Shown here in pieces: positions 10,948 through 42,307 of a stretch of DNA of 64,000 nucleotides. The stretch's first letter is position 1, and every line of letters begins with the position of its first letter. Source of the stretch: an uncultured Beijerinckia sp. (lineage in GTDB: Bacteria; Pseudomonadota; Alphaproteobacteria; Rhizobiales; Beijerinckiaceae); contig CAZTMN010000006.1 in NCBI GenBank assembly GCA_964615275.1, positions 868-64,867 of the forward strand, in the 5' to 3' direction. Made by a program: the position numbers and the translations under genes. The notes beneath the pieces were generated by a model that saw nothing but the letters and a program-made list of their open reading frames with translations, searched no databases and was not told where the DNA came from.

Positions 10948-11101
10948 TCCGGGTGCCGCTTGGGCCGTGTCCCATGAATTGGGATGTGATCTGATTATCG
11001 CCGGCGCTTTGCGGATTTTCCGGCGCTTTCTGTACTGTTGACGGAATATCCATTAAATTCAGGTCAGTCTGCGGCGTGTTCGCCGCAAGTCTGGAGTGGA
11101 A

Positions 11102-13164: not shown

Positions 13165-13170
13165 GAGTCC

Positions 13171-18342: not shown

Positions 18343-18394
18343 TATCTACGGGGCGCCGCGCGCGCCCAGGCCAACCCGGACCGGTCGATCCGCG

Positions 18395-18934
18395 ATGGAA
18401 GAAACCAATACAAAAATTGTCCGGCCTGCCGATCCGGCAGGCCGTGTCCTGTTTGAAATATCGCGTGTTCTCGCGATCGCAAGTGGCATTCTGTTGAGTT
18501 GCACTGCGGCACTTGTCACCGTCAGCGTCTTTGGCCGCAAGTTTCTGGATTTGCCTGTACCGGGTGATTTCGAGTTGGTTGCCATCGCAACCGGCCTGTG
18601 CATCTTCGGCATTTTACCCTATTGCCAAATGACCCGCAGCAATGTGCTGGTCGATTTCTTCATGGCCAAGGCTCCGACCCGCGCAAAGGCCGTCTGTGAT
18701 CTGTTCGGCAACATCCTGTTTTTGGTGATATCGGCGCTACTGACCTGGCGCCTGATCTACGGCGGCATCGACATGTACAACAACAATGAATTGTCGATGA
18801 CCATCAATTTCCCGCGCTGGACGACATTCCCGGCCTCGGTTCTGTTGATGGCGTTTCTGACGCTCGTCGTTCTGTATACGGTCTGGCGGTCCTTCGAGGA
18901 AATTCGTCAGGGCCGTTTTCTTGATCCGCAATAG
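18395..18934 (+). CDS. dctQ: TRAP transporter small permease
   Basis: Four hydrophobic segments and PVPGDFELV. Lies between dctP and dctM. Confidence 0.88.
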   Translation: MEETNTKIVRPADPAGRVLFEISRVLAIASGILLSCTAALVTVSVFGRKFLDLPVPGDFELVAIATGLCIFGILPYCQMTRSNVLVDFFMAKAPTRAKAVCDLFGNILFLVISALLTWRLIYGGIDMYNNNELSMTINFPRWTTFPASVLLMAFLTLVVLYTVWRSFEEIRQGRFLDPQ

Positions 18935-18961
18935 CGCCGGATCACCGGGGGAATTCCTGCG

Positions 18962-20290
18962 ATGAGCTCGCTACAATTAGGCTTGATCGGCTTTGTCGTA
19001 CTGTTGGCGCTATTGGCCATTCGCATCCCCATCGCCATTGCGATGCTTAGTGTCGGTTTGACCGGTTATTACATTATTGCCGGCGAGACAGCCCTGTTGA
19101 GTTTCCTGAAGACTCAAACTTATTGGGCGTTCACCAGTGATTCTCTTTCGGTTGTTCCGCTGTTCATCCTGATGGGCCAGTTCGCGTCCAAGGCAGGACT
19201 TAGCACGGCCCTGTTCCGTGCCGCCAACGTCTGGCTCGGCCACCATCGCGGCGGCATTGCCATGGCCGCCGTTGGCGGTTGCGCGGGCTTTGGCGCAATC
19301 ACCGGATCCTCGCTCGCGACCGCAGCCACGATGGGCCAGGTTGCCCTGCCGGAGTTGCGGCGCTTCAATTATTCTGGCGGTCTTTCGACCGCGTGTCTCG
19401 CGGCCGGCGGTACGCTCGGCATCTTGATTCCGCCGTCGATCGTTCTGATCATCTTCGCCGTCATGGTCGAAGCGAATGTCGCCACGCTGTTTCAGGCTGC
19501 GTTCATTCCCGGCGTACTCGCCGCTATCGGATACATAATCGCTATCGCCATCGTTGTCCGTGTCAATCCCGATGCCGGGCCGGCCGGACCGCGCGAACCC
19601 TATTCGGTGCGCTTCCGCGCCCTGCTTGATATCTGGCCGGTGCTGTTGATTTTCCTGCTGGTCATGGGCGGTATTTACGCCGGCATCTTCACGCCGACGG
19701 AAGGCGCGGCGGTTGGAGCCATCGGGACTTTCATCATTGCTGTCACGGCCGGCGGCATGCGCACCCACGGCTTTCTTGAGGCCTTGCTTGAAACAGCGCA
19801 GACGACCGGCATGATTTTTCTGATCCTGTTGGGCGCGACGATCTTCAACGCGTTTCTGGGATTTTCCCAGTTGCCGATATTCGCCGCGGACTTCTTCCAG
19901 AATTCCGGCATGTCGCCTTATACCGTTTTGTTTGGAATGATCGTTTTGTACATCGTGCTCGGGATGGTGATGGATTCCTTGTCGATGATCCTGCTGACCA
20001 TCCCGATATTCTGGCCAATCATCATGGGGCTTGAGGGGGGCTTCCCGGTGCAGGGGGAAGACCTGAAAATCTGGTTCGGCATAATTACGCTGATTGTCGT
20101 TGAAATGGGATTGATTACCCCGCCGGTCGGGCTGAACGTTTTCGTAATCAACTCCATGGCCAAGGATGTGCCGATGATTGAAACCTTCAAGGGCGTAATT
20201 CCCTTCCTTGCGTCAGATTTCATTCGCGTCGGTATTTTGATTGCCGCGCCAATATTGGTCCTGTTCCTGCCACGGCTCGTGGCCGGGTAA
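18962..20290 (+). CDS. dctM: TRAP transporter large permease
   Basis: PLFILMG, GGTLGILIPPS, TPTEGAA and ITPPVGLNVF. Confidence 0.93.
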   Translation: MSSLQLGLIGFVVLLALLAIRIPIAIAMLSVGLTGYYIIAGETALLSFLKTQTYWAFTSDSLSVVPLFILMGQFASKAGLSTALFRAANVWLGHHRGGIAMAAVGGCAGFGAITGSSLATAATMGQVALPELRRFNYSGGLSTACLAAGGTLGILIPPSIVLIIFAVMVEANVATLFQAAFIPGVLAAIGYIIAIAIVVRVNPDAGPAGPREPYSVRFRALLDIWPVLLIFLLVMGGIYAGIFTPTEGAAVGAIGTFIIAVTAGGMRTHGFLEALLETAQTTGMIFLILLGATIFNAFLGFSQLPIFAADFFQNSGMSPYTVLFGMIVLYIVLGMVMDSLSMILLTIPIFWPIIMGLEGGFPVQGEDLKIWFGIITLIVVEMGLITPPVGLNVFVINSMAKDVPMIETFKGVIPFLASDFIRVGILIAAPILVLFLPRLVAG

Positions 20291-23286: not shown

Positions 23287-24273
23287 ATGGCATACAGACA
23301 ACCAGGGAAATTTGTCCTCGCCGCCTAGGCGGCGGTTGCGCTGACCGGGCCCAGTATAGCCAAGGACGTCAAACTTCTTGCCAGCTGGTCGCTTGCGAAC
23401 AAGGGTACCTACCTCAGCGAAAAAACTTTCATCAAGCTTGTGAGCGAGACCTCCAAGGGCAAACTCACAGTCAAGCGCAGCGGTCCGGAAGTTGTGCCGG
23501 GATTTCAGCAAATCCAGCCAGTGAAAGCCGGTGTGTTCGACCTGTTGTTGACGCACGGCGCCTATCACTACGGCACCATCGGCATTGGCGTGGCGATGGA
23601 CGCGATCAATGGCGATCCCGTTAAGCGCCGCAGCACCGGTATCTGGGATGCTGTTGACAAATTGTACAACAAGCAGGGTTTGAAGATGATCGCGATGGTG
23701 CCGCAAGGCAAGTCCGGCTATCAGATGATCCCGAAGAAACCGATCACAAAGGCTGGCGATATCAAGGGCCTGAAGATTCGCGGGACAATTACATATCATC
23801 CGCTGATCAAGGCATTTGGTGGATCGCCCGTTGTTATTCCCGGTGGCCAGGTTTACTCCGCACTCGAAAAGGGCGTGGTCGATGGCGCCTGCTGGCCGAC
23901 CGTCGGTCCGCTTGACCTGAAATGGACCGAAGTGACGAAGTATTACGTTCGGCCATCATTCGGTGTCAGTACGCTTCTGATTCTCGCCAACATGAGCAAG
24001 TTCAAGGCTCTGAGTGCTGACGAACAGAAGGCGTTGCTTGAGGCCGGCAAGAAACTGGAAACGACGATTTACGCGGATTTCGACAAACTGGCTGCGGAGG
24101 AAGAAGCTGGCTACAAGAAAGCAGGCATGAAAGAAGTGCGCTTTTCCAAGGCCAACGAGGCGCGGATTGGCGGATTGTGGTCGCAGGGCATCTGGGGCCT
24201 GGTCAAGAAAAAACATCCCAAGGAAGCGGCTGCGCTGCAGAAGCTCGTGAACGACAAGAAGATGGGCATGTAA
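23287..24273 (+). pseudogene. dctP: TRAP substrate-binding protein interrupted by an in-frame TAG at codon 14 (23326-23328)
   Basis: ATG at 23287 with RBS GGGAG reads MAYRQPGKFVLAA*AAVALTGPSIAKDVKLLASW and continues in frame into the GTG ORF at 23440 (GLKIRG, ALEKGVVDG). Confidence 0.8.
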
Positions 24274-24286
24274 GGCACCGGTCTTC

Positions 24287-24310
24287 CAGGGCGGCGTCAG
24301 CGCCGCCCTG
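24287..24310 (+). other. GC-rich intergenic hairpin after the TRAP SBP gene
   Basis: CAGGGCGGCG-TCAG-CGCCGCCCTG with no immediate U-tract. Possibly an mRNA-stabilising element. Confidence 0.5.
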
Positions 24311-24354
24311 CATTATGGGAACCGGGCTTTTCCTTTTTAGCTGGGGTTCGATTC

Positions 24355-24882
24355 ATGAGCGATGCCAATGAACATCGCCCGGCGGCGTGGTATGACCGGC
24401 TGCTCAACGGCTTGATAGAATTAAGTGCAGTTTTCGCCACCCTCGGCCTGGGTGCGATTGTTGTCATGTACAGTATCGAAATTTTTTCGCGCTATTTCCT
24501 GAATGCTCCGACCACCTGGGCGAGCGACTTCATTGTTTTTACCCTGTGCGCATCGATCTTCATGATGATGCCGGAAATTACGCGCTCTGGCGGCCATGTC
24601 GCGGTCACGCTCCTGACGGATTTGCTGCCACCCGGGGGACGTGCGGTCTCCCGTCGCCTGCTTGCCCTGGTCGGGTTTTGTGTCTGCGTGTTTGCCACCT
24701 ACATCAGTCTCCAGGAAAACGTCCGCCAGTATGTTGAAGGCTTGACGACTGTCACAACGATTACGACGCCCAAGTGGATGATTACGATTTTTATTACCTA
24801 TGGCCTTGCGGTCTCGGCGCTGGAATTTTTTCGTCAGGCGCTTTCAACAACACCGCCGTCCAGTGCGTCGGTAATAGGTTAG
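24355..24882 (+). CDS. dctQ: TRAP transporter small permease
   Basis: SRYFLNAPTTWA, GGHVAV and four TM segments. Confidence 0.88.
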   Translation: MSDANEHRPAAWYDRLLNGLIELSAVFATLGLGAIVVMYSIEIFSRYFLNAPTTWASDFIVFTLCASIFMMMPEITRSGGHVAVTLLTDLLPPGGRAVSRRLLALVGFCVCVFATYISLQENVRQYVEGLTTVTTITTPKWMITIFITYGLAVSALEFFRQALSTTPPSSASVIG

Positions 24883-24892
24883 GTGAACGATC

Positions 24893-26206
24893 ATGCTGAC
24901 CGGAATTACCGCCGTAGTTGTCGCAATCGCAGTTCTGCTTGGATTGTTCGCGCTTGGATTGCCGATTGTCGTGGCGTTTCTGCTGGCCAACCTGGTCGGC
25001 GTTCTCATGCTTATGGGCCCGCCCGGCTTCGGCATGTTCGCCAACTCGATCTACGATACTGCAACGACCGTAGAGCTCGCTACGATTCCGCTGTTTCTGC
25101 TTGTGGGCGAATTGCTGTTTCGGGGCAGGGCGATCGACGTGCTGTTTGAATCGGTCGATACCCTGGTCAGCAAGATGCGCGGCCGGCAATATGTTTTGAC
25201 AATGTTGTTGTCGGTGATATTCGCCGCATTGTCCGGTGCCGCAATGGGCGTGGCGGCAATGCTGGGCAGATCGGTGCTGCCTGGAATGCAAAAACGCGGC
25301 TATGATGCGAAGCTCTCCGCAGGCGCGATACTGGCAGGCGCCTCGCTGGCGCCGATCATACCGCCCAGTGTTCTGGCGATTATCATCGGAACCCTTGCCG
25401 GGGTTTCCATTTCAGGTTTGTTGATAGCCGGAATCATACCCGGCCTGATCCTCGCAGCTTTGTTCTTCGTCTATATTTACGGCCGGATGTTGCTCAATCC
25501 TGCGCTTGCACCGGCGGAAGCAGACGACGGTGGCCGCAATGCCGGCTGGAAGGACAAGCTGTGGTCGATCGCACGCCTCGCGCCGTTCAGCCTGATCATC
25601 ATTACGATCATGGGCTTTATTTTACTTGGTATTACGACCCCGTCAGAATCAGCGGCGACAGGTGTAATCGGCGCATTGCTGGCAGCATTGCTTTACCGCA
25701 AACTGTCGCTGCGCATGGTCTGGGACTCCCTGCGTTCTTCCATGGGGGTCGCCTCGATGATCCTCGTCATTATGGCAAGCTCGAAAATGTTCGGCCAGTT
25801 CTTGGCGTTCACTGGCGGGACAACCGCTTTGACAGCCATGGTTGCCGCGCTTGATTGGCATCCCGCGGCAATGTTTTTCATCATGATGTTTTTCCCGTTC
25901 ATCGTGTGTATGTTTATCGACCAGATTGCCCTGATGTTGATCGTTATCCCGATCTACAAACCGTTGATCGCGGCGTTTGGATTCGATCCGATCTGGTTTT
26001 GGCTGATTTTCCTGATCAACATCACCATAGGCGGGATGACGCCGCCCTTTGGATACACCTTGTTTGCACTCAAGGGCGCCGCGCCGCAGCTCAAACTGGG
26101 AGATGTGTTTTCGGCCGCCTGGCCATTCGTGCTTTTGTTCATTATCGGAATCGTCATCCTTTGGGCGTTTCCGGGTCTGGTCACCTACCTTCCGGGCAAG
26201 CTATAA
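24893..26206 (+). CDS. dctM: TRAP transporter large permease
   Basis: TIPLFLLVG, LAPIIPPS, TTPSESAA and MTPPFG. Confidence 0.92.
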   Translation: MLTGITAVVVAIAVLLGLFALGLPIVVAFLLANLVGVLMLMGPPGFGMFANSIYDTATTVELATIPLFLLVGELLFRGRAIDVLFESVDTLVSKMRGRQYVLTMLLSVIFAALSGAAMGVAAMLGRSVLPGMQKRGYDAKLSAGAILAGASLAPIIPPSVLAIIIGTLAGVSISGLLIAGIIPGLILAALFFVYIYGRMLLNPALAPAEADDGGRNAGWKDKLWSIARLAPFSLIIITIMGFILLGITTPSESAATGVIGALLAALLYRKLSLRMVWDSLRSSMGVASMILVIMASSKMFGQFLAFTGGTTALTAMVAALDWHPAAMFFIMMFFPFIVCMFIDQIALMLIVIPIYKPLIAAFGFDPIWFWLIFLINITIGGMTPPFGYTLFALKGAAPQLKLGDVFSAAWPFVLLFIIGIVILWAFPGLVTYLPGKL

Positions 26207-27484: not shown

Positions 27485-28651
27485 CTAATCCGGTCCGGTG
27501 CGCCCGTCGTTGGCCGCTTCAGCGTCGCCGTTTTCGTCGACGCTCAGCAAGTGCCCGGCGCGTTCGCGTTTGGCCGACAGGTAGCGGACGTTGAAGTCGT
27601 TAAGGCGCCCCTCGATCCGCTGTTCGGCGGCAACGTCGAGGCCCGCGGATTTTAACGCTGCAATCTTGGTGGGGTTGTTTGTCATGATCCGCACCGCTTT
27701 CACCCCCAGCTGGTGCAGCATGCCGGCTGCGAAATCGAACAATCGCTGGTCGCGATCGAAGCCAATCACCTCGTCGGCATCGTATGTGTCGAGGCCGGTG
27801 GCTTGCAGCCGGTAAGCCCGGATCTTGTTGGACAAGCCATTACCGCGGCCTTCCTGGTCCAGATACAGCAGAATGCCGCCGCCGTTGTCCGACATGAATT
27901 TGACCGTCTCGCGCAATTGGTCGCCGCAATCGCATTTCAAACTGCCAAACAGGTCTCCTGTCAGGCAGGCCGAGTGCAGGCGGACGGTCACCGGCTTGCT
28001 CATGTCCGGTTCGCCAACAATTATCGCCACCTGGTCGCGCATTCCCTCGCCGCCGCGAAAGACCACGAATTCTGTATTGTTGGCGTCCTCAAGCGGCACG
28101 GCGGCGCGTGATATAAGCTCGAGCTCTGTTGATTGCTTGCTGCGATAGGCAAGGACGTCGTTGGCCTCGGCAAGCAGCGGATCAAACTGCGGCAGCACGT
28201 TGGCGGAAACTGGCACCACGAGTACGGATGGGTGAACAAGCGCCAAATGGACCAGTTCCAGGGCGGCGAGATCCAGTTTTGAAGCGTTGGCCACTGGAGC
28301 GTCGAACCGCGCCCCCTGCTCCATTGCCAGCATTGCCAGCCGTTCCATATCGATACGGGGCGCGGCGATCACGCCTGGCTTTGCCCGGTCAAAGCCCAGC
28401 CTGCGCAGCCTGGGGGCAGGCAGAACCAGCCTTGGAGTCCGGCGGGCAACCGCTTCCAGTTGCCTGGCCAGCCTCATCGACAGGGCTTCAACGCCAAGCA
28501 CAAGCACATAACTGCGGCCCGAGCGGATCGCTGCGACGCGGCCTGCGCGGATCTCCGCGATGGCCCGCTCAACAGCGATCATGCCGCCGTTATCCGGTGA
28601 AACCCTGGTGCTATCGTCGGTTTTTCTGGAATTTTCTTGATGCTCTGACAC
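27485..28651 (-). CDS. ribA: GTP cyclohydrolase II with a degenerate RibB-like N-terminal domain
   Basis: RLHSACLTGDLFGSLKCDCG, QEGRG, NKIRAY, TNNPTK and RAGHLL. Confidence 0.9.
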   Translation of the reverse strand: MSEHQENSRKTDDSTRVSPDNGGMIAVERAIAEIRAGRVAAIRSGRSYVLVLGVEALSMRLARQLEAVARRTPRLVLPAPRLRRLGFDRAKPGVIAAPRIDMERLAMLAMEQGARFDAPVANASKLDLAALELVHLALVHPSVLVVPVSANVLPQFDPLLAEANDVLAYRSKQSTELELISRAAVPLEDANNTEFVVFRGGEGMRDQVAIIVGEPDMSKPVTVRLHSACLTGDLFGSLKCDCGDQLRETVKFMSDNGGGILLYLDQEGRGNGLSNKIRAYRLQATGLDTYDADEVIGFDRDQRLFDFAAGMLHQLGVKAVRIMTNNPTKIAALKSAGLDVAAEQRIEGRLNDFNVRYLSAKRERAGHLLSVDENGDAEAANDGRTGPD

Positions 28652-28773
28652 TACAACCTCAAGCTGCTGGAGCCATGTTTCTTCACAGCTCCTGATCTAG
28701 ATAGCACGGTAGCGTGTTCCAGCATCCCGGCATCAATAAATTCTGCCACACTTTTTTGTGACGGAATATACCT

Positions 28774-29538
28774 ATGCCGTACCGTGATTATATTGCAAAC
28801 CCGCCTATGGTGTCCGGGAAAAGCCTTAAATCGCCTACCGAGGGGATAGAATTTTTGAATCGAGACACGGTTTACAAGGAAATAATGAACCCATTGTGGC
28901 AAGCCCCGGGGGACAGACCCTTTGTTATTGCCCAGATCGGTCAATCGCTGGACGGCCGCATTGCGACGGCAGGGGGTGACGCAAAAAATGTCGGAGGCCG
29001 CAGCGGACTGGATCAGTTGCACCGATTGCGCGCAAACGTCGATGTCGTCGTTGTCGGAGCTGCAACCGTGCTGGCGGACGATCCGCAACTTACCGTGCGC
29101 CGTGTGTGCGGCTCCAATCCTGCCAGGGCGATCATCGACCCGCACCGCCGTGTGCCCGCGGGCCTGCGATGGCAGGCGGAGAACGGCGTGCGCCGGATTT
29201 TGATTACCAGTAGCGAGCAGCCGGGTTGCACTGAATCCGCAATACATCTGCCTTGCGGCGAAGACGGTATAGCGCCCCGGGAAATTGTGAAAAAGCTGTT
29301 TGCCCTGGGACTGAAAAAGATCTTGATCGAGGGCGGTCCGGCAACCATTCGCCGGTTCCTGCTGGCACGATGCCTGGATCGTCTGCATGTTTGCGTATCC
29401 CCGATGATCATAGGCCCGGGCAAGCACGGCATCGATGTCGATCCGGTACACAGTCTCGACCAGGCATTGCGGCCCGCAACCAGGACATTTCTGCTGGATG
29501 ACGGCGAGGTTCTGTTCGATTGCGACATGCGCGCGTGA
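28774..29538 (+). CDS. RibD C-terminal (pyrimidine reductase) family protein without a deaminase domain
   Basis: QSLDGRIAT, HRLRA, VGAATVLADDPQLTVR and ILIEGG. The start is uncertain. Confidence 0.88.
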   Translation: MPYRDYIANPPMVSGKSLKSPTEGIEFLNRDTVYKEIMNPLWQAPGDRPFVIAQIGQSLDGRIATAGGDAKNVGGRSGLDQLHRLRANVDVVVVGAATVLADDPQLTVRRVCGSNPARAIIDPHRRVPAGLRWQAENGVRRILITSSEQPGCTESAIHLPCGEDGIAPREIVKKLFALGLKKILIEGGPATIRRFLLARCLDRLHVCVSPMIIGPGKHGIDVDPVHSLDQALRPATRTFLLDDGEVLFDCDMRA

Positions 29539-29664
29539 CCGGATTGCCGCTCAACCCGTTGATTGTTATTCAAGCCGGCGGCAGCATGTCGAAATACTTC
29601 GACTTGTGTGCAGGCTCCTGTACTATGTCGTCCTGATCACTCTTGTCCTTCAGGTACATTGTCT

Positions 29665-30222
29665 ATGACTTCAAAGACCGCGCCCGAGCACTATTCAGCA
29701 GCGGCGAAATGGCTTCACTGGCTGACGGCGCTCTGCATATTTGTCATTATTCCAATGGGTATCGTGATGCACGAAATGAAGCCCGGCGCGTTGCAGAACC
29801 AGCTCTACGATTTGCATCGTTCATTGGGATTTGTCGTGCTGGTTCTTGTAGTGTTGCGCCTTGTCGTGCGGGCGGTTCTGGGCGCTCCGCCACCTTATGT
29901 TGGCTTGACCGCATTTGAACGTATCGCTTCGGTCGCCGTGCATCACTTGCTGTACTTGTTGTTGGTTGCAATGCCCATCGTCGGCTGGCTGATGACCAAT
30001 GCATACAGCGCTACGCTGGATGTGTCGGTTTTTGGACTGTTCAAACTTCCGCACTTGATCGGTGAAGACAAGACGCTGTTTGCAACATTGCAGGTGCTGC
30101 ACAAAGCCGGCGGTATTGCGATGGCGGTTTTGGTGCTGTTTCATATTGCCGGCGCGCTGATGCACACGTTTGTCAGGCGCGATACGGTGTTGTGGCGCAT
30201 GCTGCCCCACAAATGGGGTTGA
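29665..30222 (+). CDS. Cytochrome b561 (YceJ/CybB-like)
   Basis: Four TM helices with heme His in WLHW, LHRSLG, LHKAG and FHIAGALMH. Confidence 0.9.
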   Translation: MTSKTAPEHYSAAAKWLHWLTALCIFVIIPMGIVMHEMKPGALQNQLYDLHRSLGFVVLVLVVLRLVVRAVLGAPPPYVGLTAFERIASVAVHHLLYLLLVAMPIVGWLMTNAYSATLDVSVFGLFKLPHLIGEDKTLFATLQVLHKAGGIAMAVLVLFHIAGALMHTFVRRDTVLWRMLPHKWG

Positions 30223-30246
30223 TCTTCTGGGATCGATCTTCGCCTG

Positions 30247-31101
30247 TTACTTGCCGGCACGTCGAATGGGGACGCCAAAGATGTCCGCGTGGCCGACGAC
30301 ACAGGATGCAGCGTCGCGACGGGCGCTTTGCCAGCTGGCGATTTGCGCAGGCCGAACCATACCGGTTTGCGCTACGGCCTGAGCGCTGCCTTGCGCCAGC
30401 GCGTCAATGAGTTCTTTGTGCCGGACATCGAGCCGCCAGGGGCTCGGCGACTGCCGGACAGAATATCCGCTTTCTTCAAGCGCCTTCGCCAGTTGCGCTG
30501 CCGCTTGTGGCCCGGCCGCCGGCCCAAATCCCTTGTCGCGACGCTGGTCGTGGTGAAACGCGCGCAGCATGTCTGGGTCCGCCGGGTGAGGAGGTTGCCA
30601 GACTTCGCTTCCGTCATAGGTTAGCAGCGCATACAGCGGGGCCGACAATTCCGCCAGCGTCCGGCAGAAGTTCTTGATCCAGGCCTCCGAGGTCAGGTCG
30701 AAAAATGCGCTCGCCGTCACCAATTGCGCGCCGTCAACATGTCGTTGCGGCAATCGGGCGCCGATATCGGCTTCCTTAAATTCGACCTTGATCTGCTGTT
30801 CGCCGCGAACGAGGTGGAGATGGTCTCCGGAATCGTATCCGCGGTCGGCCCAGCGGCTTAATCTCCGGCGGGCGTGATCGAGCAGGAGTCGATCGTTGTC
30901 TACCAGTCGCCATGTCTGGTTTGCAGGCAGCACCGGCGAAATCGCCCGCAGGCTGGAGCCGGATCCCGAACCCAGGTCGGTGACGGTAATGTCCGCCTGC
31001 CCGGCGAAATGGGCCGCAACCTGCTTGAGTAATTCGGGGTTGATGGCTGCGTGATCTACAGGTTCCCGCAAAGATAACCAGTGTTCAGAAAATCCGCTCA
31101 T
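30247..31101 (-). CDS. Class I SAM-dependent methyltransferase
   Basis: WLSLREPVDHAA, TDLGSGSGS and VTASAFFDL. ATGA-coupled to the GT gene. Confidence 0.85.
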   Translation of the reverse strand: MSGFSEHWLSLREPVDHAAINPELLKQVAAHFAGQADITVTDLGSGSGSSLRAISPVLPANQTWRLVDNDRLLLDHARRRLSRWADRGYDSGDHLHLVRGEQQIKVEFKEADIGARLPQRHVDGAQLVTASAFFDLTSEAWIKNFCRTLAELSAPLYALLTYDGSEVWQPPHPADPDMLRAFHHDQRRDKGFGPAAGPQAAAQLAKALEESGYSVRQSPSPWRLDVRHKELIDALAQGSAQAVAQTGMVRPAQIASWQSARRDAASCVVGHADIFGVPIRRAGK

Positions 31102-32177
31102 CGGGAAAGCTCCTGCGCCACGTCGTCGACCGGTTGCAGAAAGCGCATTGCCGTATCGCTCCAGCGCGGCAGGGATTGTCCTGCCTGCCAGGACGCGTCC
31201 GCCAGGCTGGCGCGCAAACCCTTGTTTGTCAGCAGCGTTTCCAGGGCCCGCCTGAGCGAAGGCACATCGTCTGGCGGAACCTTGAGTGCCGCGCTATCGG
31301 GGACCGTGTGCGCCGCCGCGCCACCGGTCGCGGTTATGACGGGCAGGCCACAGGCCATTGCTTCGGCGAGAACCATTCCATAGCCTTCATAGCGCGAAGA
31401 CAAGACGAAAGCGTCCGAGCGATGATACAGGCGCGCCAGATCGTCCGCCGTGGTTTCACCGCAAAACTCCACCTGGCCATCGAGCTGGAGTTCAGCGGTT
31501 AGCCGGATAATGCTTTCGGCATAGACGGGAGCACGATCGGTGGCCCCGGCAATTCGCAGGCGCCAGGGAAGTCCTTTCAGTGGCTCGAGCGCCTGCAACA
31601 ACAAATCATGGCCTTTACGCGGGACGACTGAACCCACAGATAGAAAATCGGTTGTCTCGTCATGACTTCCGGCTGCGCGGGGCATCGGATCGGTGCCGGG
31701 TTCCGCAACAACAATCCTGTCTGCCGGAACAGCAAACTCCCGCGCGAGGAAGTCCGCGGTGGTTTTACTGGGCACGATGAACCGCCGCGCCAGCGCAAGA
31801 TTGGCCCGTTCGTTGTCCTGGAACCAGGCGGCCTTCTCGCCGGGCAGTCCCGCTTCGAGGGCCAACGGGTGGTGACACAGCGCGATCAGCCCTTTGCGCA
31901 GCCGGCGGGCTGCATCATGGGGGATCGCACCAAACGCAAGGCCGTCGACAACGACGGGCGCCGCCGGATCGCAACCATTGATTTGATCGATGGTTTGCCT
32001 GACATCGTCGTGTGATGGAAACGGATACGAGGCCGCCAGGGCGCAATGGTTCACGGCGACGCCAGCGGTGCGCAACTCACCCATGACCCGGCGATCATAT
32101 GTGTAGCCGCCGGTGAGTGTGGCCAGGTCGCCGGGCACAGCAAAGGTGAGGGCCCGCTTGGCGGAATGCCGGTTCAT
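31098..32177 (-). CDS. Glycosyltransferase family 4
   Basis: LTGGYTYDRR, VGSVVPRKG and the EX7E motif in SRYEGYGMVLAEAMACGLPV. Confidence 0.92.
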   Translation of the reverse strand: MNRHSAKRALTFAVPGDLATLTGGYTYDRRVMGELRTAGVAVNHCALAASYPFPSHDDVRQTIDQINGCDPAAPVVVDGLAFGAIPHDAARRLRKGLIALCHHPLALEAGLPGEKAAWFQDNERANLALARRFIVPSKTTADFLAREFAVPADRIVVAEPGTDPMPRAAGSHDETTDFLSVGSVVPRKGHDLLLQALEPLKGLPWRLRIAGATDRAPVYAESIIRLTAELQLDGQVEFCGETTADDLARLYHRSDAFVLSSRYEGYGMVLAEAMACGLPVITATGGAAAHTVPDSAALKVPPDDVPSLRRALETLLTNKGLRASLADASWQAGQSLPRWSDTAMRFLQPVDDVAQELSR

Positions 32178-32182
32178 CGCTT

Positions 32183-32584
32183 TCAGTTGACCGCAGCTTC
32201 GAACCAGGCACGGGCGACGTGCGATTCATGCAGCGTTACACGAATTTTCGCGATGCCTTCACCGCCCGGCCCGAGTGCACCGGAGCTTGCGGCCCGGGCC
32301 ATTGCGTCGAAGACGTGCTTGCACAGGAATTCGGTCGTCGTTTGCTGTCCGGCGAACGCGGGAACCTCGTCGAGATTGCGGTAATTCAGCGGTTCCAGAA
32401 CTTGCTTGAGGGCGTCGTGGGCGCGTCCGATGTCGATGACCACGCCGTCCGCGGTCAATTCATCGCGGAAGAATGCGACGTCCGCAATAAAGGTTGCGCC
32501 ATGCAGGCGCTGGGCGGGGCCGAACAATTCTCCCTTGAAGGAATGCGCGATCATGATGTGATCGCGAACTTCTACCGCAAACAT
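32183..32584 (-). CDS. 6-pyruvoyl-tetrahydropterin synthase/QueD homolog, PTPS-IV type
   Basis: HIMIAHSF...FGPAQRLHGATF, TTEFL and VTLHES. It lacks the Cys-x3-HGH motif of QueD. ATG at 32584 follows GGAG. Confidence 0.88.
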   Translation of the reverse strand: MFAVEVRDHIMIAHSFKGELFGPAQRLHGATFIADVAFFRDELTADGVVIDIGRAHDALKQVLEPLNYRNLDEVPAFAGQQTTTEFLCKHVFDAMARAASSGALGPGGEGIAKIRVTLHESHVARAWFEAAVN

Positions 32585-32666
32585 CTTCAACTCCACAAAA
32601 TGGCGCTTTCGCACCGGCAATTGTGCCGGTCATGCCCCGCCTTATTTGGGACACCTGGATGGCACA

Positions 32667-33677
32667 TCAATACCGCACCACCGCCGCAAGTCCGGTTTCC
32701 GGCCCCAGGAGATAGTCGGGCAATACTTGCGGCAAATCTTCGAAACGGAATTCATCCGTGATCAATGCGTCAAGGCGATCATCGCACAGCAGGTCGAGCG
32801 CCTTTGCTAGGCGCCTGTTATGGGACCATCGCTGACGCCGGGATGGGGCGACACGTCCGACCTGCGAGGAAACGAGTTGCAGCCGCCGGCTGTGAAACTC
32901 TGCGCCCAGCGGGATCGGCACCTCCTCGTCGCCGTACCAGCTCACTTCGACAATGCGCGATTCCATGCCGGCCGTGCGCAGGGCGCTGGACAGTCCCGCC
33001 GGGGTAGCGCTGGCGTGAAAGACAACATCAGCGCCAATGCTATTGCCGCTCCGCGATCCCAGCTCTTCCGGCAGCAGGAATTGTGCGCCGAACGCCCGTG
33101 CCAGCGGAGCTCGGGATTGCTGCGGGTCTACAGCGGTCACGTAGGCGCCTGGCATCCCGGCACACAGGTAGCAGATCATCAGGCCAACGATCCCCGCACC
33201 GATCACAACAATGTTATCGCCGGGCGCCGCACCACTGTCCCAGACAGCGTTGAGCGCGGTCTCCATATTGGCGGCGAGCGGGGCCCGCCTTGGAGGTAGC
33301 GCTTCCGGAAATGGGCAAACCCTGTCGGCCGGCACCAGGAATCGATCCTGGTGCGGGTGCAACACGAATACATTGCGCCCGGTCAGTTCCGGTGGCCCTT
33401 CTTCGACGGATCCGGCGGTGCAATAGCCGTACTTCACCGGAAAAGGGAAATCCCCGCACTGGTATGGCGCGCGCATGCGCGCATATTCGGACCGCGGGAC
33501 CTTACCGGACATGACCAACCGCTCGGTCCCGCGGCTGATTGCACTCCACTGGGTTGCAACCAGCGCCATTGGCGTTGCGGAACCGGCTTCCGGGTAGCAC
33601 AACGTTTCGGCCCGCAGCTCCGCATGGGCCGGATTGTCGTACCAGAGCGCCCTGGCGCTCAATTTGTCACCACGCAT
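32667..33677 (-). CDS. MDR-family (zinc-binding alcohol dehydrogenase-like) oxidoreductase
   Basis: SAISRGTE, FPFPVKYGY, HPHQD, ANMETALNAVWD, IGAGIVG and SSQVG. The start may be 33725. Confidence 0.88.
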   Translation of the reverse strand: MRGDKLSARALWYDNPAHAELRAETLCYPEAGSATPMALVATQWSAISRGTERLVMSGKVPRSEYARMRAPYQCGDFPFPVKYGYCTAGSVEEGPPELTGRNVFVLHPHQDRFLVPADRVCPFPEALPPRRAPLAANMETALNAVWDSGAAPGDNIVVIGAGIVGLMICYLCAGMPGAYVTAVDPQQSRAPLARAFGAQFLLPEELGSRSGNSIGADVVFHASATPAGLSSALRTAGMESRIVEVSWYGDEEVPIPLGAEFHSRRLQLVSSQVGRVAPSRRQRWSHNRRLAKALDLLCDDRLDALITDEFRFEDLPQVLPDYLLGPETGLAAVVRY

Positions 33678-33860
33678 TTGTGAGGTCACAACCAGTTCAT
33701 TTCCCTTTAGACACATGATTGCCAAAGTTCACATGTCATTCACTTGGCTAGAGTTAGGCGAACCGGGCCGCATTGGCCAGCCCCTTGGTCAACCCCGTGT
33801 CCCGCCGCGGTGTATTCGTAAGGCAGGTTCAGAATACAAGTCGGATTTTTTGAGTAGACC

Positions 33861-35789
33861 ATGACGATCCACCAGCAGTTTGATGGCGCCGGTATTCCCG
33901 CGGCAGGCGATGTATCAAGGCCCCTCCGTTTGCGGCCACATTGGATCGGCAAAACGCCTGCCGGAATTCAGCGTCGCCATCTCCTGAAGCGCCGCCGTAC
34001 CGTTTTCGCTTTTCTGAACGTAGCCACCTGGTTTGCGCTGATCCTGTGGCTGGGCACCATATTGCGCGCCGGCGGATGGAGCGGCATCGACATCGCGATC
34101 ATGTCGTGTTTCGCCCTTGCGGCGCCCTGGGGCGTCCTGGGAATCTGGAATGCGCTGACTGGCTTGTGGCTGCTATACCGGCGCCAGGACGGCAGGCGGA
34201 ACTGGCTCGCGCAAGTCGCACCCTATGCCGCGGCCGGCAAGGCGGATGCACCCATTCGCTCCCGCACCGCGATTGTCATGACAATCTGCAACGAAGCCCC
34301 GGAAAGGGCCATCGCCCGGCTTGCGGCAGTGCGCGACAGCCTTGAGCGCACATCGGCTCCAGAGGCGTACGACTACTTCATTCTCAGCGACACCAATGAT
34401 GACGCGATCGCTGCCGTTGAAGCGCGGGAATTTGCGCGTTGGCAGGAGCAGGCGGGTCTGGTTCAAAGCGCCGCCGCCGGCGCGCAACCAAGACTTGTCT
34501 ACCGCCGCCGGGACCGAAATTCCGGCTTCAAGGCTGGCAATATCCGCGATTTCTGCGAGCGTTGGGGATCGCGATACGATTTTTTCTTGCCACTCGATGC
34601 AGACAGCCTGATGTCCGGAGAAACCATCGAGCGCATGGTCCGCATTTGCCAGGCGTGGCCGCGCATCGGCATCCTGCAAAGTCTGGTAGTTGGCGCGCCC
34701 AGCAATTCGCTGTTTGCGCGCATTTTCCAGTTTGGAATGCGGCAGGGTATGCGCCCCTACGCGATTGGCAGCGCCTGGTGGAATGGCGATTGCGGTCAAT
34801 ATTGGGGCCACAACGCATTGGTCCGCACAGAGCCGTTCCTCGAACATTGCGAACTGCCGGAGCTACCTGAAGGGGCGCTGTTCGGGGAACGAATTTTGTC
34901 GCACGATCAGGTCGAGGCCGTGCTGATGCGCAAGGCCGGCTACGAAGTGCGGGTGTTGCCAATTGAGACCGGCAGCTGGGAGGACAATCCGCCTGACCTG
35001 CTGGAATTCATGCAGCGGGACACGCGCTGGTGCCAGGGCAACCTGCAATATGTGCACCTGCTAGGCATGAAGAACATCGAGCCGACGAGCCGCTTTCAAT
35101 TGATCTGGGCAGTCATGATGTTCCTGAACCTGCCGGCCTGGACGTCGATCATCGCGCTGATAGCACTAAAGCCCCTTGATGGAGAGCCCTTGACCGGGGT
35201 CACGGCAATATCGGCGATCGGCTTTTACGTGTTTTTCTTGCTGATGTTCCTGGCGCCCAAGCTCGCCGGTTATGCGGACATTGCCCTGACACGGGGTGAA
35301 CTGGCCCGGTATGGCGGGGGGCTGCGCTTTGCCGTGAGTGCCACCTTTGAAATCGTCTTCTCCTTCCTCCTGGCTGCGGTCGTCAGTTTCCGCACCAGTA
35401 TCTTCATGGCTGGCCTGTTGTTCGGCAAACAAATTCGCTGGGGCGGCCAGCATCGCGATGCGCGCTCTATGCGCTTCGCTACGGCGGCTTCGGCCTTGTG
35501 GCCGCATTTGCTCTTTGGTCTGGCGATCTATGCAATTGCAATGCAAACAGCGCCACAATTGATCCTGTGGTCCTTGCCGCTTACCTTGGGTTATGTGCTT
35601 GCGATACCGTTTGCAATCGCTGGAGCATCGCCTCGCCTCGGCGCGCTGGCGGCGCGGCGGCGCATTTGCGCAATACCGGAGGATTTCAATTTGCCGCCAG
35701 TGCTTGCGCAGATGGCGCGTGCAGACGGGTTATCCGGCGATGCCAGCGAAAACAACGGGAAGCGGACGCCTGCGATTGCAACATCCTGA
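33861..35789 (+). CDS. mdoH: Glucans biosynthesis glucosyltransferase H
   Basis: FILSDT, YRRRDRNSGFKAGNI, LDADS, YWGHNA, LSHDQVEA, GSWEDNPP and RWCQGNLQ. Confidence 0.93.
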   Translation: MTIHQQFDGAGIPAAGDVSRPLRLRPHWIGKTPAGIQRRHLLKRRRTVFAFLNVATWFALILWLGTILRAGGWSGIDIAIMSCFALAAPWGVLGIWNALTGLWLLYRRQDGRRNWLAQVAPYAAAGKADAPIRSRTAIVMTICNEAPERAIARLAAVRDSLERTSAPEAYDYFILSDTNDDAIAAVEAREFARWQEQAGLVQSAAAGAQPRLVYRRRDRNSGFKAGNIRDFCERWGSRYDFFLPLDADSLMSGETIERMVRICQAWPRIGILQSLVVGAPSNSLFARIFQFGMRQGMRPYAIGSAWWNGDCGQYWGHNALVRTEPFLEHCELPELPEGALFGERILSHDQVEAVLMRKAGYEVRVLPIETGSWEDNPPDLLEFMQRDTRWCQGNLQYVHLLGMKNIEPTSRFQLIWAVMMFLNLPAWTSIIALIALKPLDGEPLTGVTAISAIGFYVFFLLMFLAPKLAGYADIALTRGELARYGGGLRFAVSATFEIVFSFLLAAVVSFRTSIFMAGLLFGKQIRWGGQHRDARSMRFATAASALWPHLLFGLAIYAIAMQTAPQLILWSLPLTLGYVLAIPFAIAGASPRLGALAARRRICAIPEDFNLPPVLAQMARADGLSGDASENNGKRTPAIATS

Positions 35790-35829
35790 TACATTGCACG
35801 TTGCGGCAGGCAACACGTCGGCAGGAAAC

Positions 35830-36873
35830 ATGTCGATTGTCCGGATCGGGCCGATGTCTAGCGCTCGCCGTCCCCGGGCCCGCTGCACTGTTCTGCGATG
35901 TGCGGTGGCTCTGGCCCTTGCTGTTTCGCTTGCTGGTCCCGCTGCTGCCCAGGGCGGGCAAGAAAACCGCCCTGCCGGAATGGCCGGCAAACCGATAGAC
36001 GTGATCGCAATCAACAAGAGCAAGCCGGTATTATGCGCCGAGCATGATAACGTGCACATCGATTTTGTCTCGCCCGATGTCAGGCAATTCCAAATCCAGG
36101 CGCGGCACCCCACCTACATTGCGTCGATCCGCAACGAACGGGCCGAGTTTGATCTGGCGAATTGCAGCTTCCACAAGGACCCGGTTGTACCTGCGAAACC
36201 GCGCAAGAAGACGTTCTGGGAATCGCGGAAATTTTGGCTGACCGGATACACGTTTGGCGGATTCTGGCGCGCCAATAATGTGCCTGTGCGCGTCGGCCGC
36301 CATGTCGGACGCGGTTTTCACATGGTACAATTGTGGATGCTGCACCGGGAACGGGCCGAAGAGGTCATGGTTTTCTATCCGCCTGACGGCTACTGGCGCG
36401 CCCGGCCGCTTCCGTTTGCGGACATGCGCTGGACGGCCTACGGCTCATCTTTCCTGGTTGGACCGGTAGAATTTGAAAAGCGGCCGTTGGTGCGGTTGAA
36501 GGAAATCGAATTCGATCCCGCAGCGAACCGCTTTACGCTACATTTCATGGCTGGCGGCTCGGCCACCATCACGCTGAAATCGATTGATCAGAAGCAGATT
36601 ACCTTGGATGTCGCCTTTCCGCGGGCAATGCCTCGCGGGCTACCGTTTGCTTCGCTTCGTTCCATGTACGTTACCGAGACAAATTCGGACGTGGCCCGCC
36701 TGGCCTGGCGGTCAATGCGCTCAAAGCGATGGCTTGAATCTCCGGTCATGGAATTCAAGAAAGCCGCGACAAGTCATTTTTGGGCTGGCCGGCGGGTTAT
36801 GTCGCGGCACAACCAGAGCGCCCCCGATTTTGTTTTCCGCTCGTTTGCTGGTCCGCTCGTGCCGGCGCGATAA
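35830..36873 (+). CDS. Exported hypothetical protein
   Basis: RBS AGGA before the ATG at 35830, signal peptide ending AGPAAA-QG, and a long Trp/Phe-rich open frame with no family I recognise. Confidence 0.7.
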   Translation: MSIVRIGPMSSARRPRARCTVLRCAVALALAVSLAGPAAAQGGQENRPAGMAGKPIDVIAINKSKPVLCAEHDNVHIDFVSPDVRQFQIQARHPTYIASIRNERAEFDLANCSFHKDPVVPAKPRKKTFWESRKFWLTGYTFGGFWRANNVPVRVGRHVGRGFHMVQLWMLHRERAEEVMVFYPPDGYWRARPLPFADMRWTAYGSSFLVGPVEFEKRPLVRLKEIEFDPAANRFTLHFMAGGSATITLKSIDQKQITLDVAFPRAMPRGLPFASLRSMYVTETNSDVARLAWRSMRSKRWLESPVMEFKKAATSHFWAGRRVMSRHNQSAPDFVFRSFAGPLVPAR

Positions 36874-38273: not shown

Positions 38274-38645
38274 TTATCCATCGTAACACAGGTAGGCGTG
38301 CTGTGGCGCCGACGGTGTTCCCTCAAGCGCACCTCCATCCGTGTCCGGTCGCCAGTCAAGAACTGAATCCAGTTTTGCCGCCAGGGCAAAATCGCGTTCG
38401 GTAACTCCGCCCGAATCATGGCTCCACAATGCGACTTCGACGCAATCGTACGTGACCGTCATTTGTGGATGGTGCCAGGCAACCTCGCACAGATGAGCGA
38501 TGGCATTGACCGCCATCAGCGTTCCCTTCCAGCCATGGGTTCTGAAATTGCGCCGTATGGCTCCGTCGCGGAAGGTCCAGTTGGGTAGGTCCGCTGCAAG
38601 GCGGGTGACGATCTCCTGATCGGTGTGAGCATATCTGGAATTCAT
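38274..38645 (-). CDS. phhB: Pterin-4-alpha-carbinolamine dehydratase
   Basis: LPNW, AWHHP, LWSHDSGGVTERDFALAAKLD. Confidence 0.9.
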   Translation of the reverse strand: MNSRYAHTDQEIVTRLAADLPNWTFRDGAIRRNFRTHGWKGTLMAVNAIAHLCEVAWHHPQMTVTYDCVEVALWSHDSGGVTERDFALAAKLDSVLDWRPDTDGGALEGTPSAPQHAYLCYDG

Positions 38646-40085: not shown

Positions 40086-42268
40086 TCAGGCCGCCGGCGA
40101 AATCGCCCGGCGATACCCTGTGTGCCCCGGCCGATCACCGTGATTGGCCTGTTCAAGAAACTGTACCAATTCCGGCTCGCCCATCGGCTTGGCGAACAAA
40201 TAGCCTTGCAGTATGTCGCAATCTTCAATGCGAAGTTTCTCAGCTTGTTCGCTGGTTTCAACACCTTCGGCGACCACTTGCAGGTTGAGCGACCGCCCAA
40301 GCGTGATGATTGCCCGCACGATTGCTTCGTCACTTGGGTCACTGACGATGTTTTTCACGAAGCTTTGGTCGATCTTCAACACCGACACAGGCATGCGCTT
40401 GACGTAGCTCAGCGACGAGTAGCCGGTTCCAAAGTCATCAATCGATAGTTTCACGCCCATATCGACGAGTTGCTTGAGCTCGGTGCAGATATAATCGACG
40501 TCGTCAATCAGGATGCTTTCGGTAAGTTCAAGGGTAAGCCGTGAGGGCGGCAGACCTGTGTCGGCGAGTACGCGTGCAACAAGCAAGGGCACAGTACGCC
40601 GGCGGAATTGTACCGGCGACAGATTGACACTTACGCTCAGGGGACCGTCTGGTCCATCGGGCCAGCGTACGCATCCATGCAGGCTTGGCGCAACACCCAT
40701 TCGTTTATGGGTATGATGAGTCCATTCTCTTCCGCCCGTGGCAGGAAGTTGTTTGGAGATACCAGTCCGCGCGCCGGATCATTCCAGCGCAGCAAAGCCT
40801 CGACACTGACTGGCTGGCCCGTACGCGCATCGACAAGCGGCTGGTAATGCAGCACGAATTGCTTGCGTTCAACAGCTTTGCGTAACCGGCCATCGAGTAG
40901 CGCCGCCTCCCGCGCCCGCGCATCCATGTCCGCGGCGAAGAAGCAGAAATGATTGCCGCTTACGCGTTTTGCCTGGTACATGGCCAGGTCTGCATTCTTG
41001 AGCAGCTCCTCGTCTTGCTCGCCATCGGTTGGATACAGGGCGATACCGATCGAGGCGGTCACGTTCAGCGGCGCTTCTTCAAATTCCAGATTTTCCTCGA
41101 TGAGTTTCAATATGCGCGCCGCGCATTCCGCGGCGTCATCGCTGCAGGTGACCGCCGCCTGAACGACAGCGAACTCGTCGCCGCCCAGGCGCACAAGCAT
41201 ATCCTCATCGCGCATGTTTTCCTGCAACACGCTGGCCAGTTTCACGATAAAGCGGTCCCCTGCCGCATGCCCGAGTAGATCGTTGATCTGCTTGAACCCG
41301 TCCAGGTCGAACACATGAACCGCGAACAAGTGGTAGCCCCGCCGCGAACGCGCAATCAGTTTTCGCAATGCATCGTGGAGATAGGCCCGGTTCGGCAGTC
41401 CCGTCAGACTGTCGTGATGCGCCAGGTGGCGCAGGTGACTTTCCGTTCGTTTGCGCGCCGTGATATCAAGCGAGCTGGTGAGTACCGCTGATACCGAGCC
41501 GTCGTGCCGCATCAGGGACGCCTTGTTGGTCAGGTAGACTTTTGTTTCCCCGTCGGCGTCGGTCAATTCTTCCTCAAAGGGCGGCAGGGGTTTCGCGGAA
41601 TTCAGGACCAGTTCATCGAGAGCCCGATGGCGCGCCGCGTGCTCTGCACTCAGGAATTCCGAACCCTGCCGGCCTGCGATATCCTGCAGTTCCCGGCCGC
41701 AAAAACTGGCTTGGGCGGCGTTCGCGAATTGCAGCGTTCCATTCTGATCGATAGCCGAAATCATAACTGGAACCGTATCGATTACTTGCGCCAGTTGTTC
41801 CGAGGAATCGCGGAGCGCCGTTTCCCTGGTGCGCTCCGACAATTCAAGTTCGTGTGCCAGATGCGAGGCGCGTTCGCTCAGTAATTGTTGATGCTTTTGC
41901 AATTTGAGAAGATTGCGTGCCCGGGTAACGAATTCATAATGATCAACCGGGGAGTGTAGGAAGTCGGTGGCTCCTGCTTCCAACGCGCTCAGTCGGAAAC
42001 TGCGTTCTTCATAGACGGTAATAACGATCACCGGCACATCTTCGCAGTCCTCGATCGTCCGGAAGCGCCGGATGAACTCTGCACCGTTCAGATTGGGCAT
42101 CTTGTAATCTGTAATAATCAGGTCTGGCTTGTTGTCCTGAAGCCATTCAAGAGCTTCCTTGGGGTCTCCAAATGTCCGCACGGTCAAATTGGCTTCGATT
42201 GACGCCGCCAGCTTGGCAAAAATATTCCGGTTGCTAACCCGGTCGTCGACAATGACGATCAATGACAT
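40086..42268 (-). pseudogene. REC-PAS-GGDEF-EAL protein with a frameshift inside the EAL domain (about 40670)
   Basis: IVDD/ITDYKMP receiver, PAS region, [14 protein letters not shown] and VEALLRW. After QACMDA the EAL domain continues in another frame (VRWPDG...VNLSPVQF...ELTES...IDDFGTGYSSL...KIDQSF...EGVE...QGY). Confidence 0.85.
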
Positions 42269-42307
42269 GAAACCAACCCATGGCGGCTGGCCGTCGCCGC
42301 CCAATTA

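Follow-up and report, generated by a model that had tools for sequence, protein, structure and literature searches.

The DNA analysed here, referred to as the window, is a stretch of 64,000 nucleotides from an uncultured Beijerinckia sp. (assembly GCA_964615275.1, contig CAZTMN010000006.1, positions 868 to 64,867), a sequence derived from salt-marsh metagenomes whose closest relatives are Beijerinckiaceae, Methylocystis and Alsobacter. It holds a gene cluster organised around a PTPS-IV protein, a T-fold member of the COG0720 family of 6-pyruvoyltetrahydropterin synthase (PTPS) homologues. The genes of the cluster were identified by Pfam and NCBIfam scans together with the open reading frame (ORF) listing of the window. 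On the left, the gene of RibA, a GTP cyclohydrolase II (GCH II; 27485-28651, minus strand; PF00925, E=5e-49; NF006456), is separated by a divergent promoter region (28652-28773, no strand) from that of a stand-alone RibD_C reductase (28774-29538, plus strand; PF01872, E=3e-32), which is followed in the same direction by the gene of cytochrome b561, a membrane di-haem protein (29665-30222, plus strand; PF01292, E=1e-28; the ORF opens at 29563 and 29665 is the likely true start). Four genes on the minus strand converge with this pair. The first encodes an NAD(P)-dependent oxidoreductase of the medium-chain dehydrogenase/reductase (MDR) superfamily (32667-33677; PF00107, E=9e-10; the ORF extends to 33725 and 33677 is the likely true start), the second PTPS-IV (32183-32584; 133 residues from the start MFAVEV, the 145-residue ORF beginning too far upstream), the third a GT4 glycosyltransferase (31098-32177; PF00534, E=1.5e-31; PF13692, E=2e-28) and the last an S-adenosylmethionine (SAM) methyltransferase-like protein, hereafter MT (30247-31101; weak Methyltransf_25 match). 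Because the GT4 stop and the MT start overlap by 4 nt and only 5 nt lie between the PTPS stop and the GT4 start, we treat MDR-PTPS-GT4-MT as an operon. A sequence-only reading of this DNA had placed these seven genes in 27485-33725 in the same layout, and all of them were found there as it described. Its right boundary proved too short: the conserved block reaches about 3 kb further and takes in an OpgH/MdoH-like processive GT2 membrane glucan synthase (33861-35789, plus strand; NCBIfam), which shares a short divergent promoter region with MDR (33678-33860, no strand), and, downstream of it, orfX (35830-36873, plus strand), which encodes a secreted protein with a signal-like N-terminus.

As to expression, small contigs of a salt-marsh metatranscriptome lie on b561, across the MDR-PTPS junction (32514-32676), on OpgH and on orfX, which speaks weakly for transcription of the cluster genes and for a common MDR-PTPS transcript. 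Neither an FMN riboswitch nor any other Rfam match was detected in the 64-kb window at gathering thresholds, some rib operons lacking such a riboswitch anyway, and a promoter and terminator scan of the 27-37.5 kb region gave nothing beyond shuffle expectation. A riboswitch in the OpgH-MDR spacer was ruled out, the spacer being too short.

The gene arrangement is conserved far beyond chance, PTPS-IV having these genes as recurrent neighbours in 80 genomes. A genome scan with one genome per species detected the PTPS-IV pattern in at least 598 species, and the best-scoring 80 of these loci, mostly from Alphaproteobacteria with some from Beta- and Gammaproteobacteria and Acidobacteriota, made up our locus set. 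Carriers of the cluster include Bradyrhizobium sp. McL0615 (NZ_CP188254.1), Methylocystis bryophila (AP027149.1), S. coelicolor, Methylobacterium, Bosea, Paracoccus and Roseibium aggregatum. When every window ORF was compared with the 80 loci by tblastn, conservation was confined to 27485-36873. Firstly, we counted neighbours in the 49 loci that have at least 6 kb on both sides of PTPS-IV. The core next to PTPS-IV consists of GT4 (46/49), MT (46/49) and MDR (45/49); it is accompanied by the OpgH-like synthase in 34 loci, RibD_C in 29, an FkbM-family methyltransferase in 23, b561 in 20 and GCH II in 19, and more rarely by a ChvA/NdvA exporter (8/49), a CDP-alcohol phosphatidyltransferase (6/49) or a sulfatase-family membrane protein (4/49). 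With a looser flank requirement, 47 of 62 loci have OpgH at most 4 kb away from PTPS-IV, while RibD_C is a neighbour in 40 of 63 and GCH II in 22 of 63. Secondly, we examined how the GTP-side genes are arranged. The divergent pair of RibA and RibD_C-b561 recurs in related loci: b561 adjoins RibD_C in 20 of the 49 loci, and all three RibA-centred look-ups show RibA divergent from RibD_C-b561, two of them with the whole cluster. Elsewhere the same genes are joined differently. Of five distant loci looked up, two lay on contigs long enough to be used. A distant locus (L093, 46% PTPS identity) carries MatE, a short GCH II, RibD_C, MDR, PTPS-IV and GT4 as a one-strand operon; in a Paracoccus (L075), RibA-MDR-PTPS-MT-RibD_C all lie on one strand; and in an acidobacterial locus (L078) a short RibA stands immediately upstream of MDR. 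That the genes keep together across phyla while order and strand change, at times as single-strand operons, strongly supports the view that GCH II and the deaminase-less reductase feed the MDR/PTPS-IV/GT4/MT core.

The same counts bear on another explanation, namely that RibA and RibD_C serve riboflavin synthesis in the ordinary way or as a back-up and happen to lie nearby, while MDR-PTPS-IV-GT4-MT and OpgH use a non-GTP substrate, for example a sugar or polyol decorating glucans or lipids. We regard this as unlikely. It draws on the partial adjacency of GCH II (19/49) and RibD_C (29/49) and on a locus, L083, where RibA-RibD_C-b561 is present and PTPS-IV is absent within 10 kb; against it stands the recurrence of both genes with PTPS-IV across orders, strands and phyla, single-strand operons among them. 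Moreover, an independent neighbourhood analysis, which named FGPAQ as the PTPS-IV signature, also has PF00925 and PF01872 among the neighbours (AGeNNT 2017, PMC5445326), so that the GCH II surroundings attributed to PTPS-IV beforehand are found both in that publication and in the window.

We then consider what each protein could do. RibA reaches 455 bits against NF006456 ('GTP cyclohydrolase II RibA'), below the cutoff of 464. Aligned to E. coli RibA (2BZ0), it keeps the three cysteines of CxxxxxxxxxxCxC, the Tyr of KIRAY and the Arg of RDQR, which we take to be the zinc ligands, the catalytic Tyr and the Arg nucleophile, respectively. Since the catalytic residues are retained, RibA should make the normal diaminopyrimidine product. 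SCO6655 of S. coelicolor, with Met for the catalytic Tyr, reportedly makes a formylated product according to work by Spoonamore in 2006; the window RibA, unlike SCO6655, keeps this Tyr. The protein has two domains, a RibB-fold N-terminal domain (about residues 20-175) and an intact C-terminal GTP cyclohydrolase II. A Foldseek comparison of the AlphaFold model assigns the conserved N-terminal domain to the RibB structures (E~2e-6, TM~0.6), and over its entire length the protein resembles RibBA 4I14 (E=1.6e-16); a sequence-profile search of the PDB with the N-terminal domain returned no match, the RibB fold being seen by the structure model only. Because this 3,4-dihydroxy-2-butanone 4-phosphate (DHBP) synthase fold is without the acidic RENEGD catalytic loop, the model identifies RibA as a RibBA descendant with a dead RibB domain. 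Membership of the NCBIfam RibA family and the position of RibA as the window's sole GCH II favour the back-up riboflavin explanation. As a separate observation, RibA is followed in about eight relatives (L083, L084, L086, L006, L065, L069 and L076 among them) by a membrane protein of about 770 residues that matches YfhO (GT-C-like) weakly and is missing from the window.

The reductase points away from riboflavin. PF01872 spans residues 49-218 of its 254 residues and Pfam detects no deaminase domain in it, for which reason it cannot be a riboflavin RibD; a deaminase-less reductase cannot complete riboflavin synthesis, which counts against back-up riboflavin genes. Its best PDB matches are archaeal 2,5-diamino-6-ribosylamino-pyrimidinone 5'-phosphate reductases (6P8C, 3.6e-25; 2AZN, 1.2e-22), those to bacterial RibD being weaker (1e-10 to 1e-16). 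It carries the signature GQxGQSLDGRIAT, whose Gln is found in 38 of 40 cluster homologues, whereas the archaeal enzymes have Asn at the aligned position; B. subtilis RibG recognises the deaminated ring through a Lys. By these sequence features the cluster RibD_C is a distinct Gln-signature subfamily, and as the cluster holds no deaminase, the 2-amino group of the substrate is most likely kept. The set thus resembles the early archaeal/fungal order of riboflavin synthesis in pairing a canonical GCH II with a reductase most similar to the archaeal pre-deamination enzymes, and differs from that pathway in that the window has no deaminase, no lumazine or riboflavin synthase, no active DHBP synthase and no FMN riboswitch. 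Indeed, the Pfam scan of the approximately 60 window ORFs revealed none of lumazine synthase, riboflavin synthase, queC, queE and folE, in agreement with what had been read from the sequence; the cluster is none of a riboflavin, a queuosine and a folate operon. The sequence-only reading had itself allowed that the rib genes might serve riboflavin synthesis; this falls for RibD_C, which has no deaminase, and may hold for RibA, a canonical GCH II that is possibly housekeeping.

A further explanation sees the core genes as making available or altering a compound from which riboflavin or the deazaflavin F420 is built, with PTPS-IV carrying out, for instance, the missing deamination after an archaeal-type reductase. 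The archaeal-like RibD_C and the lack of a deaminase in the cluster fit such a scheme, and PTPS-IV has been said, from unpublished work, to be one that 'is involved in' F420 synthesis (Zallot 2016, PMC5041015). We nevertheless consider it very unlikely. No cofC, cofD, cofE, cofG or cofH and no other cof gene was found among the approximately 60 window ORFs by the Pfam scan, nor was a lumazine or riboflavin synthase, and cof, lumazine synthase and riboflavin synthase genes are also missing among the recurrent neighbours in the 80 loci. Most alpha-proteobacteria with the cluster are not known F420 producers, and GT4, MT, OpgH, FkbM and ChvA would be left unexplained.

PTPS-IV itself was correctly assigned from its sequence. 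It matches SCO6650 (PDB 3D7J) over its full length with E=3.7e-45 (residues 1-131 versus 21-151), and catalytic PTPS with E~1e-3 only. The motif FGPAQRLHGAT lies at residues 21-31, and 23 diverse homologues share an invariant FGPAQ (F21, G22, P23, A24) as well as H14, H28, D51, D72, T84, E85 and E120. The predicted loss of the catalytic Cys is upheld insofar as Gly22 of FGPAQ falls at the Cys position of rat PTPS, by ungapped extrapolation only; in the comparison with rat PTPS (1B66), A30 also replaces the third zinc His, and N67 and Y68 replace the catalytic Asp and His. The retained Thr-Glu pair and the further Glu are presumably those that hold the 2-amino-4-oxo-pyrimidine ring in PTPS. These residues cut both ways for the back-up riboflavin explanation: the catalytic residues of PTPS are lost in PTPS-IV and all the membrane partners are glycan or lipid enzymes, which suits a non-GTP substrate, while the kept Thr-Glu and Glu, with the ring-binding role that we ascribe to them, argue for a GTP-derived one. 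With the SCO6650 cluster the window shares FGPAQ, the loss of the catalytic Cys and of one zinc His, and the GCH II and RibD_C neighbours (PMC5445326). It differs in that proteobacterial loci add the OpgH-like synthase, b561 and orfX, of which we found no report for the PTPS-IV family. The cluster is a member of an already noticed, uncharacterised cluster family, and our literature search found no publication identifying an end product, the sequence-only reading having known of none. Domain fusions of PTPS-IV were considered as a functional clue and rejected, the ten multi-domain representatives being PTPS repeats or a probable chimera only. Six sequences (P0132, P0146, P0157, P0173, P0187 and P0220) have two or three tandem PTPS-IV-like domains per chain, and two tandem PTPS-IV-like proteins (824-855 residues) contain in addition about 400 residues with no Pfam domain.

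The other three core proteins belong to large families. In MDR, Pfam detects ADH_zinc_N, the Rossmann half, and no ADH_N catalytic zinc domain; the best PDB matches of its profile are polyol and polyol-phosphate dehydrogenases (iditol, galactitol-1-phosphate and sorbitol), over positions of about 80-310 only. Because its GxGxxG is followed by an Asp, D200, both being invariant among homologues, the sequence suggests NAD as cofactor. MT keeps D42, G46 and G48 of motif I (DLGxGxG) and the acidic D68 of motif II in all 35 homologues, and the only PDB matches of its profile are SAM methyltransferases, so by sequence it is class I SAM-dependent methyltransferase-like. GT4 is a typical group-1 glycosyltransferase (GT-B, a retaining-type family) that reaches no NCBIfam equivalog cutoff and matches MshA, BshA and sucrose-phosphate synthase in part. 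Enzymes of the group-1/GT4 type act on GTP-derived heterocycles in the synthesis of biopterin glucoside (BGluT) and of cyanopterin, the sugar of which is methylated; these bacterial pterin glycosides, however, start from GTP cyclohydrolase I and a catalytic PTPS, whereas the window has GCH II and the triad-less PTPS-IV.

A methyltransferase beside RibA and RibD_C also brings to mind the Burkholderia toxoflavin (tox) cluster, in which GCH II, a RibD-family enzyme and a SAM methyltransferase lead to a modified GTP-derived heterocycle. That the window cluster likewise makes a toxoflavin- or azapteridine-type compound for secretion as a toxin or antibiotic is, in our estimation, highly improbable. 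The combination of the three enzymes recalls toxB, toxE and toxA, and a MATE exporter heads the L093 operon; but the window RibD-like protein has no deaminase domain, which toxE has, the tox cluster is without counterparts of PTPS-IV, MDR, GT4 and OpgH, and no other tox-like genes recur in our loci, nor does the conserved block hold additional recurrent genes (ToxC and ToxD were not searched by sequence). Stable synteny in hundreds of free-living species is unlike the sporadic occurrence of biosynthetic clusters, and so close a pairing with OpgH speaks for a function in the envelope.

The OpgH-like protein scores 810 bits against NF003963, 501 bits against NF003958 (cutoff 419) and 464 bits against NF003962 (cutoff 328). 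The divergent OpgH/MDR pair, with a short spacer of mostly 10-130 nt, is present in 52 loci, and the two genes remain paired despite a changed orientation in L073 and L080. In 32 loci an FkbM-family methyltransferase gene comes after OpgH, 10 loci have a ChvA/NdvA glucan exporter (NF010178, 888 bits versus a cutoff of 733), and in beta-proteobacteria the pathway MT is located within the OpgH-ChvA operon. Loci without OpgH often have an orthologous CDP-alcohol phosphatidyltransferase (7 loci) and a sulfatase-superfamily membrane protein (6 loci). In E. coli, the backbone of the periplasmic glucans is made by OpgH, phosphatidylglycerol is made by PgsA and OpgB transfers phosphoglycerol to the glucan; the same three membrane enzyme families, OpgH-like GT2, CDP-alcohol phosphatidyltransferase and sulfatase superfamily, thus stand beside PTPS-IV clusters. 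The window departs from the E. coli system in that no OpgG or OpgD (MdoG family) was found among its scanned ORFs. From this synteny with membrane glycan and lipid enzymes we infer an envelope-bound product, either exported or attached to a glucan or lipid, and to the extent of our literature search, which found no earlier report, the link offers a lead that is new and can be tested. In L091 an additional methyltransferase gene of the CMAS type (cyclopropane-fatty-acid-synthase-like; 11151-11990, plus strand) comes after the pathway MT, beside a CDP-alcohol phosphatidyltransferase, a further hint of lipid chemistry. The orfX product (about 347 residues) is conserved downstream of OpgH in 13 loci and has 3177 homologues, every one annotated 'hypothetical'; it has no Pfam or NCBIfam match. 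Its all-beta AlphaFold model is confident (pLDDT 81, pTM 0.81), has no significant match in the PDB and is unlike solved OpgG, so that the predicted fold may be new.

Consistent pairing with membrane glycan and lipid enzymes argues against a simple soluble cofactor or pigment, the sequence-only reading having thought of a possible cofactor, pigment or stress protectant. A related proposal is a soluble small-molecule glycoside, whether a compatible solute, a stress protectant or a photoprotectant like a pterin glycoside, which would be co-regulated with the osmoregulated periplasmic glucans (OPGs) and unattached to them. OPG synthesis is osmoregulated, the window comes from a salt marsh, GT4 enzymes make several small-molecule glycosides, as the partial MshA, BshA and sucrose-phosphate synthase matches recall, and exporters (MatE, ChvA) are present in some loci. 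On the other side, the CDP-alcohol phosphatidyltransferase and the sulfatase-family transferases suggest covalent phospho-transfer at the membrane, and the pathway MT lies within the OpgH-ChvA operon in beta-proteobacteria; we find the soluble glycoside quite unlikely.

Taken together, the reading that we favour, and hold to be moderately probable, is a dedicated GTP-derived branch with a glycosylated and methylated product linked to the envelope. The first two riboflavin-type steps, in the archaeal/fungal order, would open this branch. In the first, RibA would convert GTP into 2,5-diamino-6-ribosylamino-4(3H)-pyrimidinone 5'-phosphate, a step that comes close to being shown because all catalytic residues are present. 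In the second, RibD_C would reduce the ribosyl to a ribityl group with no prior deamination, so that the 2-amino-4-oxo-pyrimidine would be kept, as the archaeal-type similarity, the Gln in place of the RibG Lys and the lack of a deaminase indicate. The NAD-type MDR and the non-canonical PTPS-IV would then remodel the side chain or the ring. PTPS-IV, which has lost the catalytic triad and one zinc His, would anchor the 2-amino-4-oxo-pyrimidine through its kept Thr-Glu and Glu; conceivably, a ribityl hydroxyl would be oxidised and ring closure or tautomerisation on the T-fold protein would give a pterin-like core. From their family membership, GT4 would add a sugar and MT a methyl group, and by synteny the product would be either exported to the envelope or bound there to a glycan or lipid, and would not be merely a cytoplasmic cofactor. 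In this window the candidate membrane partners are the divergent OpgH-like synthase, the secreted orfX product and cytochrome b561. The glycosylated, methylated GTP derivative that had been proposed from the sequence is supported as regards a dedicated branch; for its class, pterin, lumazine and azapteridine are candidates that the sequence does not separate. A plant offers a precedent for such a diversion: vicine of faba bean is a GCH II-derived pyrimidine glucoside made via the RibBA-type VC1, and vicine and convicine likewise take a GCH II product away from riboflavin to end as glycosylated aminopyrimidines (10.1101/2020.02.26.966523). That pathway differs in its proposed ribosyl hydrolysis and involves neither a reductase nor a T-fold protein, an MDR, a methyltransferase or a membrane partner.

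Several points weigh against this interpretation. RibD_C is adjacent in about 60% of loci and GCH II in about 35-40%, and because the two are neighbours in only part of the loci, supply in trans is assumed for the others. RibA, the sole GCH II in the window and in a family that NCBI names plain RibA, may also be the housekeeping GTP cyclohydrolase II. Every known PTPS catalytic residue is lost in PTPS-IV, and since the SCO6650 crystal is said to be without metal and the protein without PTPS activity, PTPS-IV could be a binding protein and not an enzyme. MDR has no recognisable zinc catalytic domain, and neither the direction nor the type of its predicted reaction is fixed thereby. The steps after RibA are predicted from sequence and synteny, and the putative envelope link from synteny. 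Finally, the 80 loci are mostly proteobacterial, with Actinobacteria and archaea outside the sample.

A more specific version of the envelope-linked branch is that envelope molecules receive a new GTP-derived head group in the form of a glycosylated and methylated polyol of the 2-amino-pyrimidine or pterin-like kind; we put this forward tentatively and find it rather doubtful. At OpgH-type loci, including the window, a periplasmic glucan would carry the group; in other lineages, the CDP-alcohol phosphatidyltransferase would first attach it to a phospholipid, and the sulfatase-family enzyme would transfer it afterwards. Redox activity of the group outside the cytoplasm is conceivable, as cytochrome b561 hints. 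We know of no GTP-derived substituent on any periplasmic glucan.

The flanks of the cluster in the window consist of unrelated genes: TRAP transporters, an aldo-keto reductase, an A2M/PBP1C pair and a GGDEF regulator. A pterin-4a-carbinolamine dehydratase gene (38274-38645, minus strand; PF01329, E=5e-25), 1.4 kb past orfX and suggestive given a possible pterin product, was rejected as a member of the cluster, lying near it in 1 of the 80 loci. The pair of A2M, a bacterial alpha-2-macroglobulin of 1775 residues, and PBP1C (42505-49928, minus strand) is also found near the PTPS-IV/RibA cluster in L084 and L086, so that local synteny in relatives extends beyond the cluster. A PAS-GGDEF-EAL response regulator (40637-42304, minus strand) looks truncated, its EAL match covering profile positions 3-74 of 236. 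Two TRAP sets of DctP, DctQ and DctM lie a few kb apart (17302-20290 and 23440-26206, plus strand); the second DctP matches profile positions 93-269 only, which may reflect a shortened N-terminus or a wrongly called start. A NuoE-like 2Fe-2S protein, a NuoF-like FMN protein and a molybdopterin oxidoreductase of 950 residues (11096-16023, plus strand) look like a soluble NAD-linked formate dehydrogenase, and an Xre/MbcA/ParS-type antitoxin followed by a RES-domain toxin (60844-61809, plus strand) is likely a toxin-antitoxin pair.

PTPS-IV has counted as an acknowledged "known unknown" ever since the structure of SCO6650 was determined (2008) and the COG0720 family was surveyed (2012). Solving its product would add a new branch to GTP/riboflavin-precursor metabolism. 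The links to OpgH, ChvA, phosphatidyltransferase and sulfatase genes direct the search for this product to the periplasmic glucan and lipid fractions, beyond soluble extracts, and suggest that soil, plant-associated and marine Proteobacteria, as well as Acidobacteriota, carry a previously unseen kind of envelope decoration. If the installation of a GTP-derived head group were true, it would be the first heterocycle-decorated periplasmic glucan or lipid.

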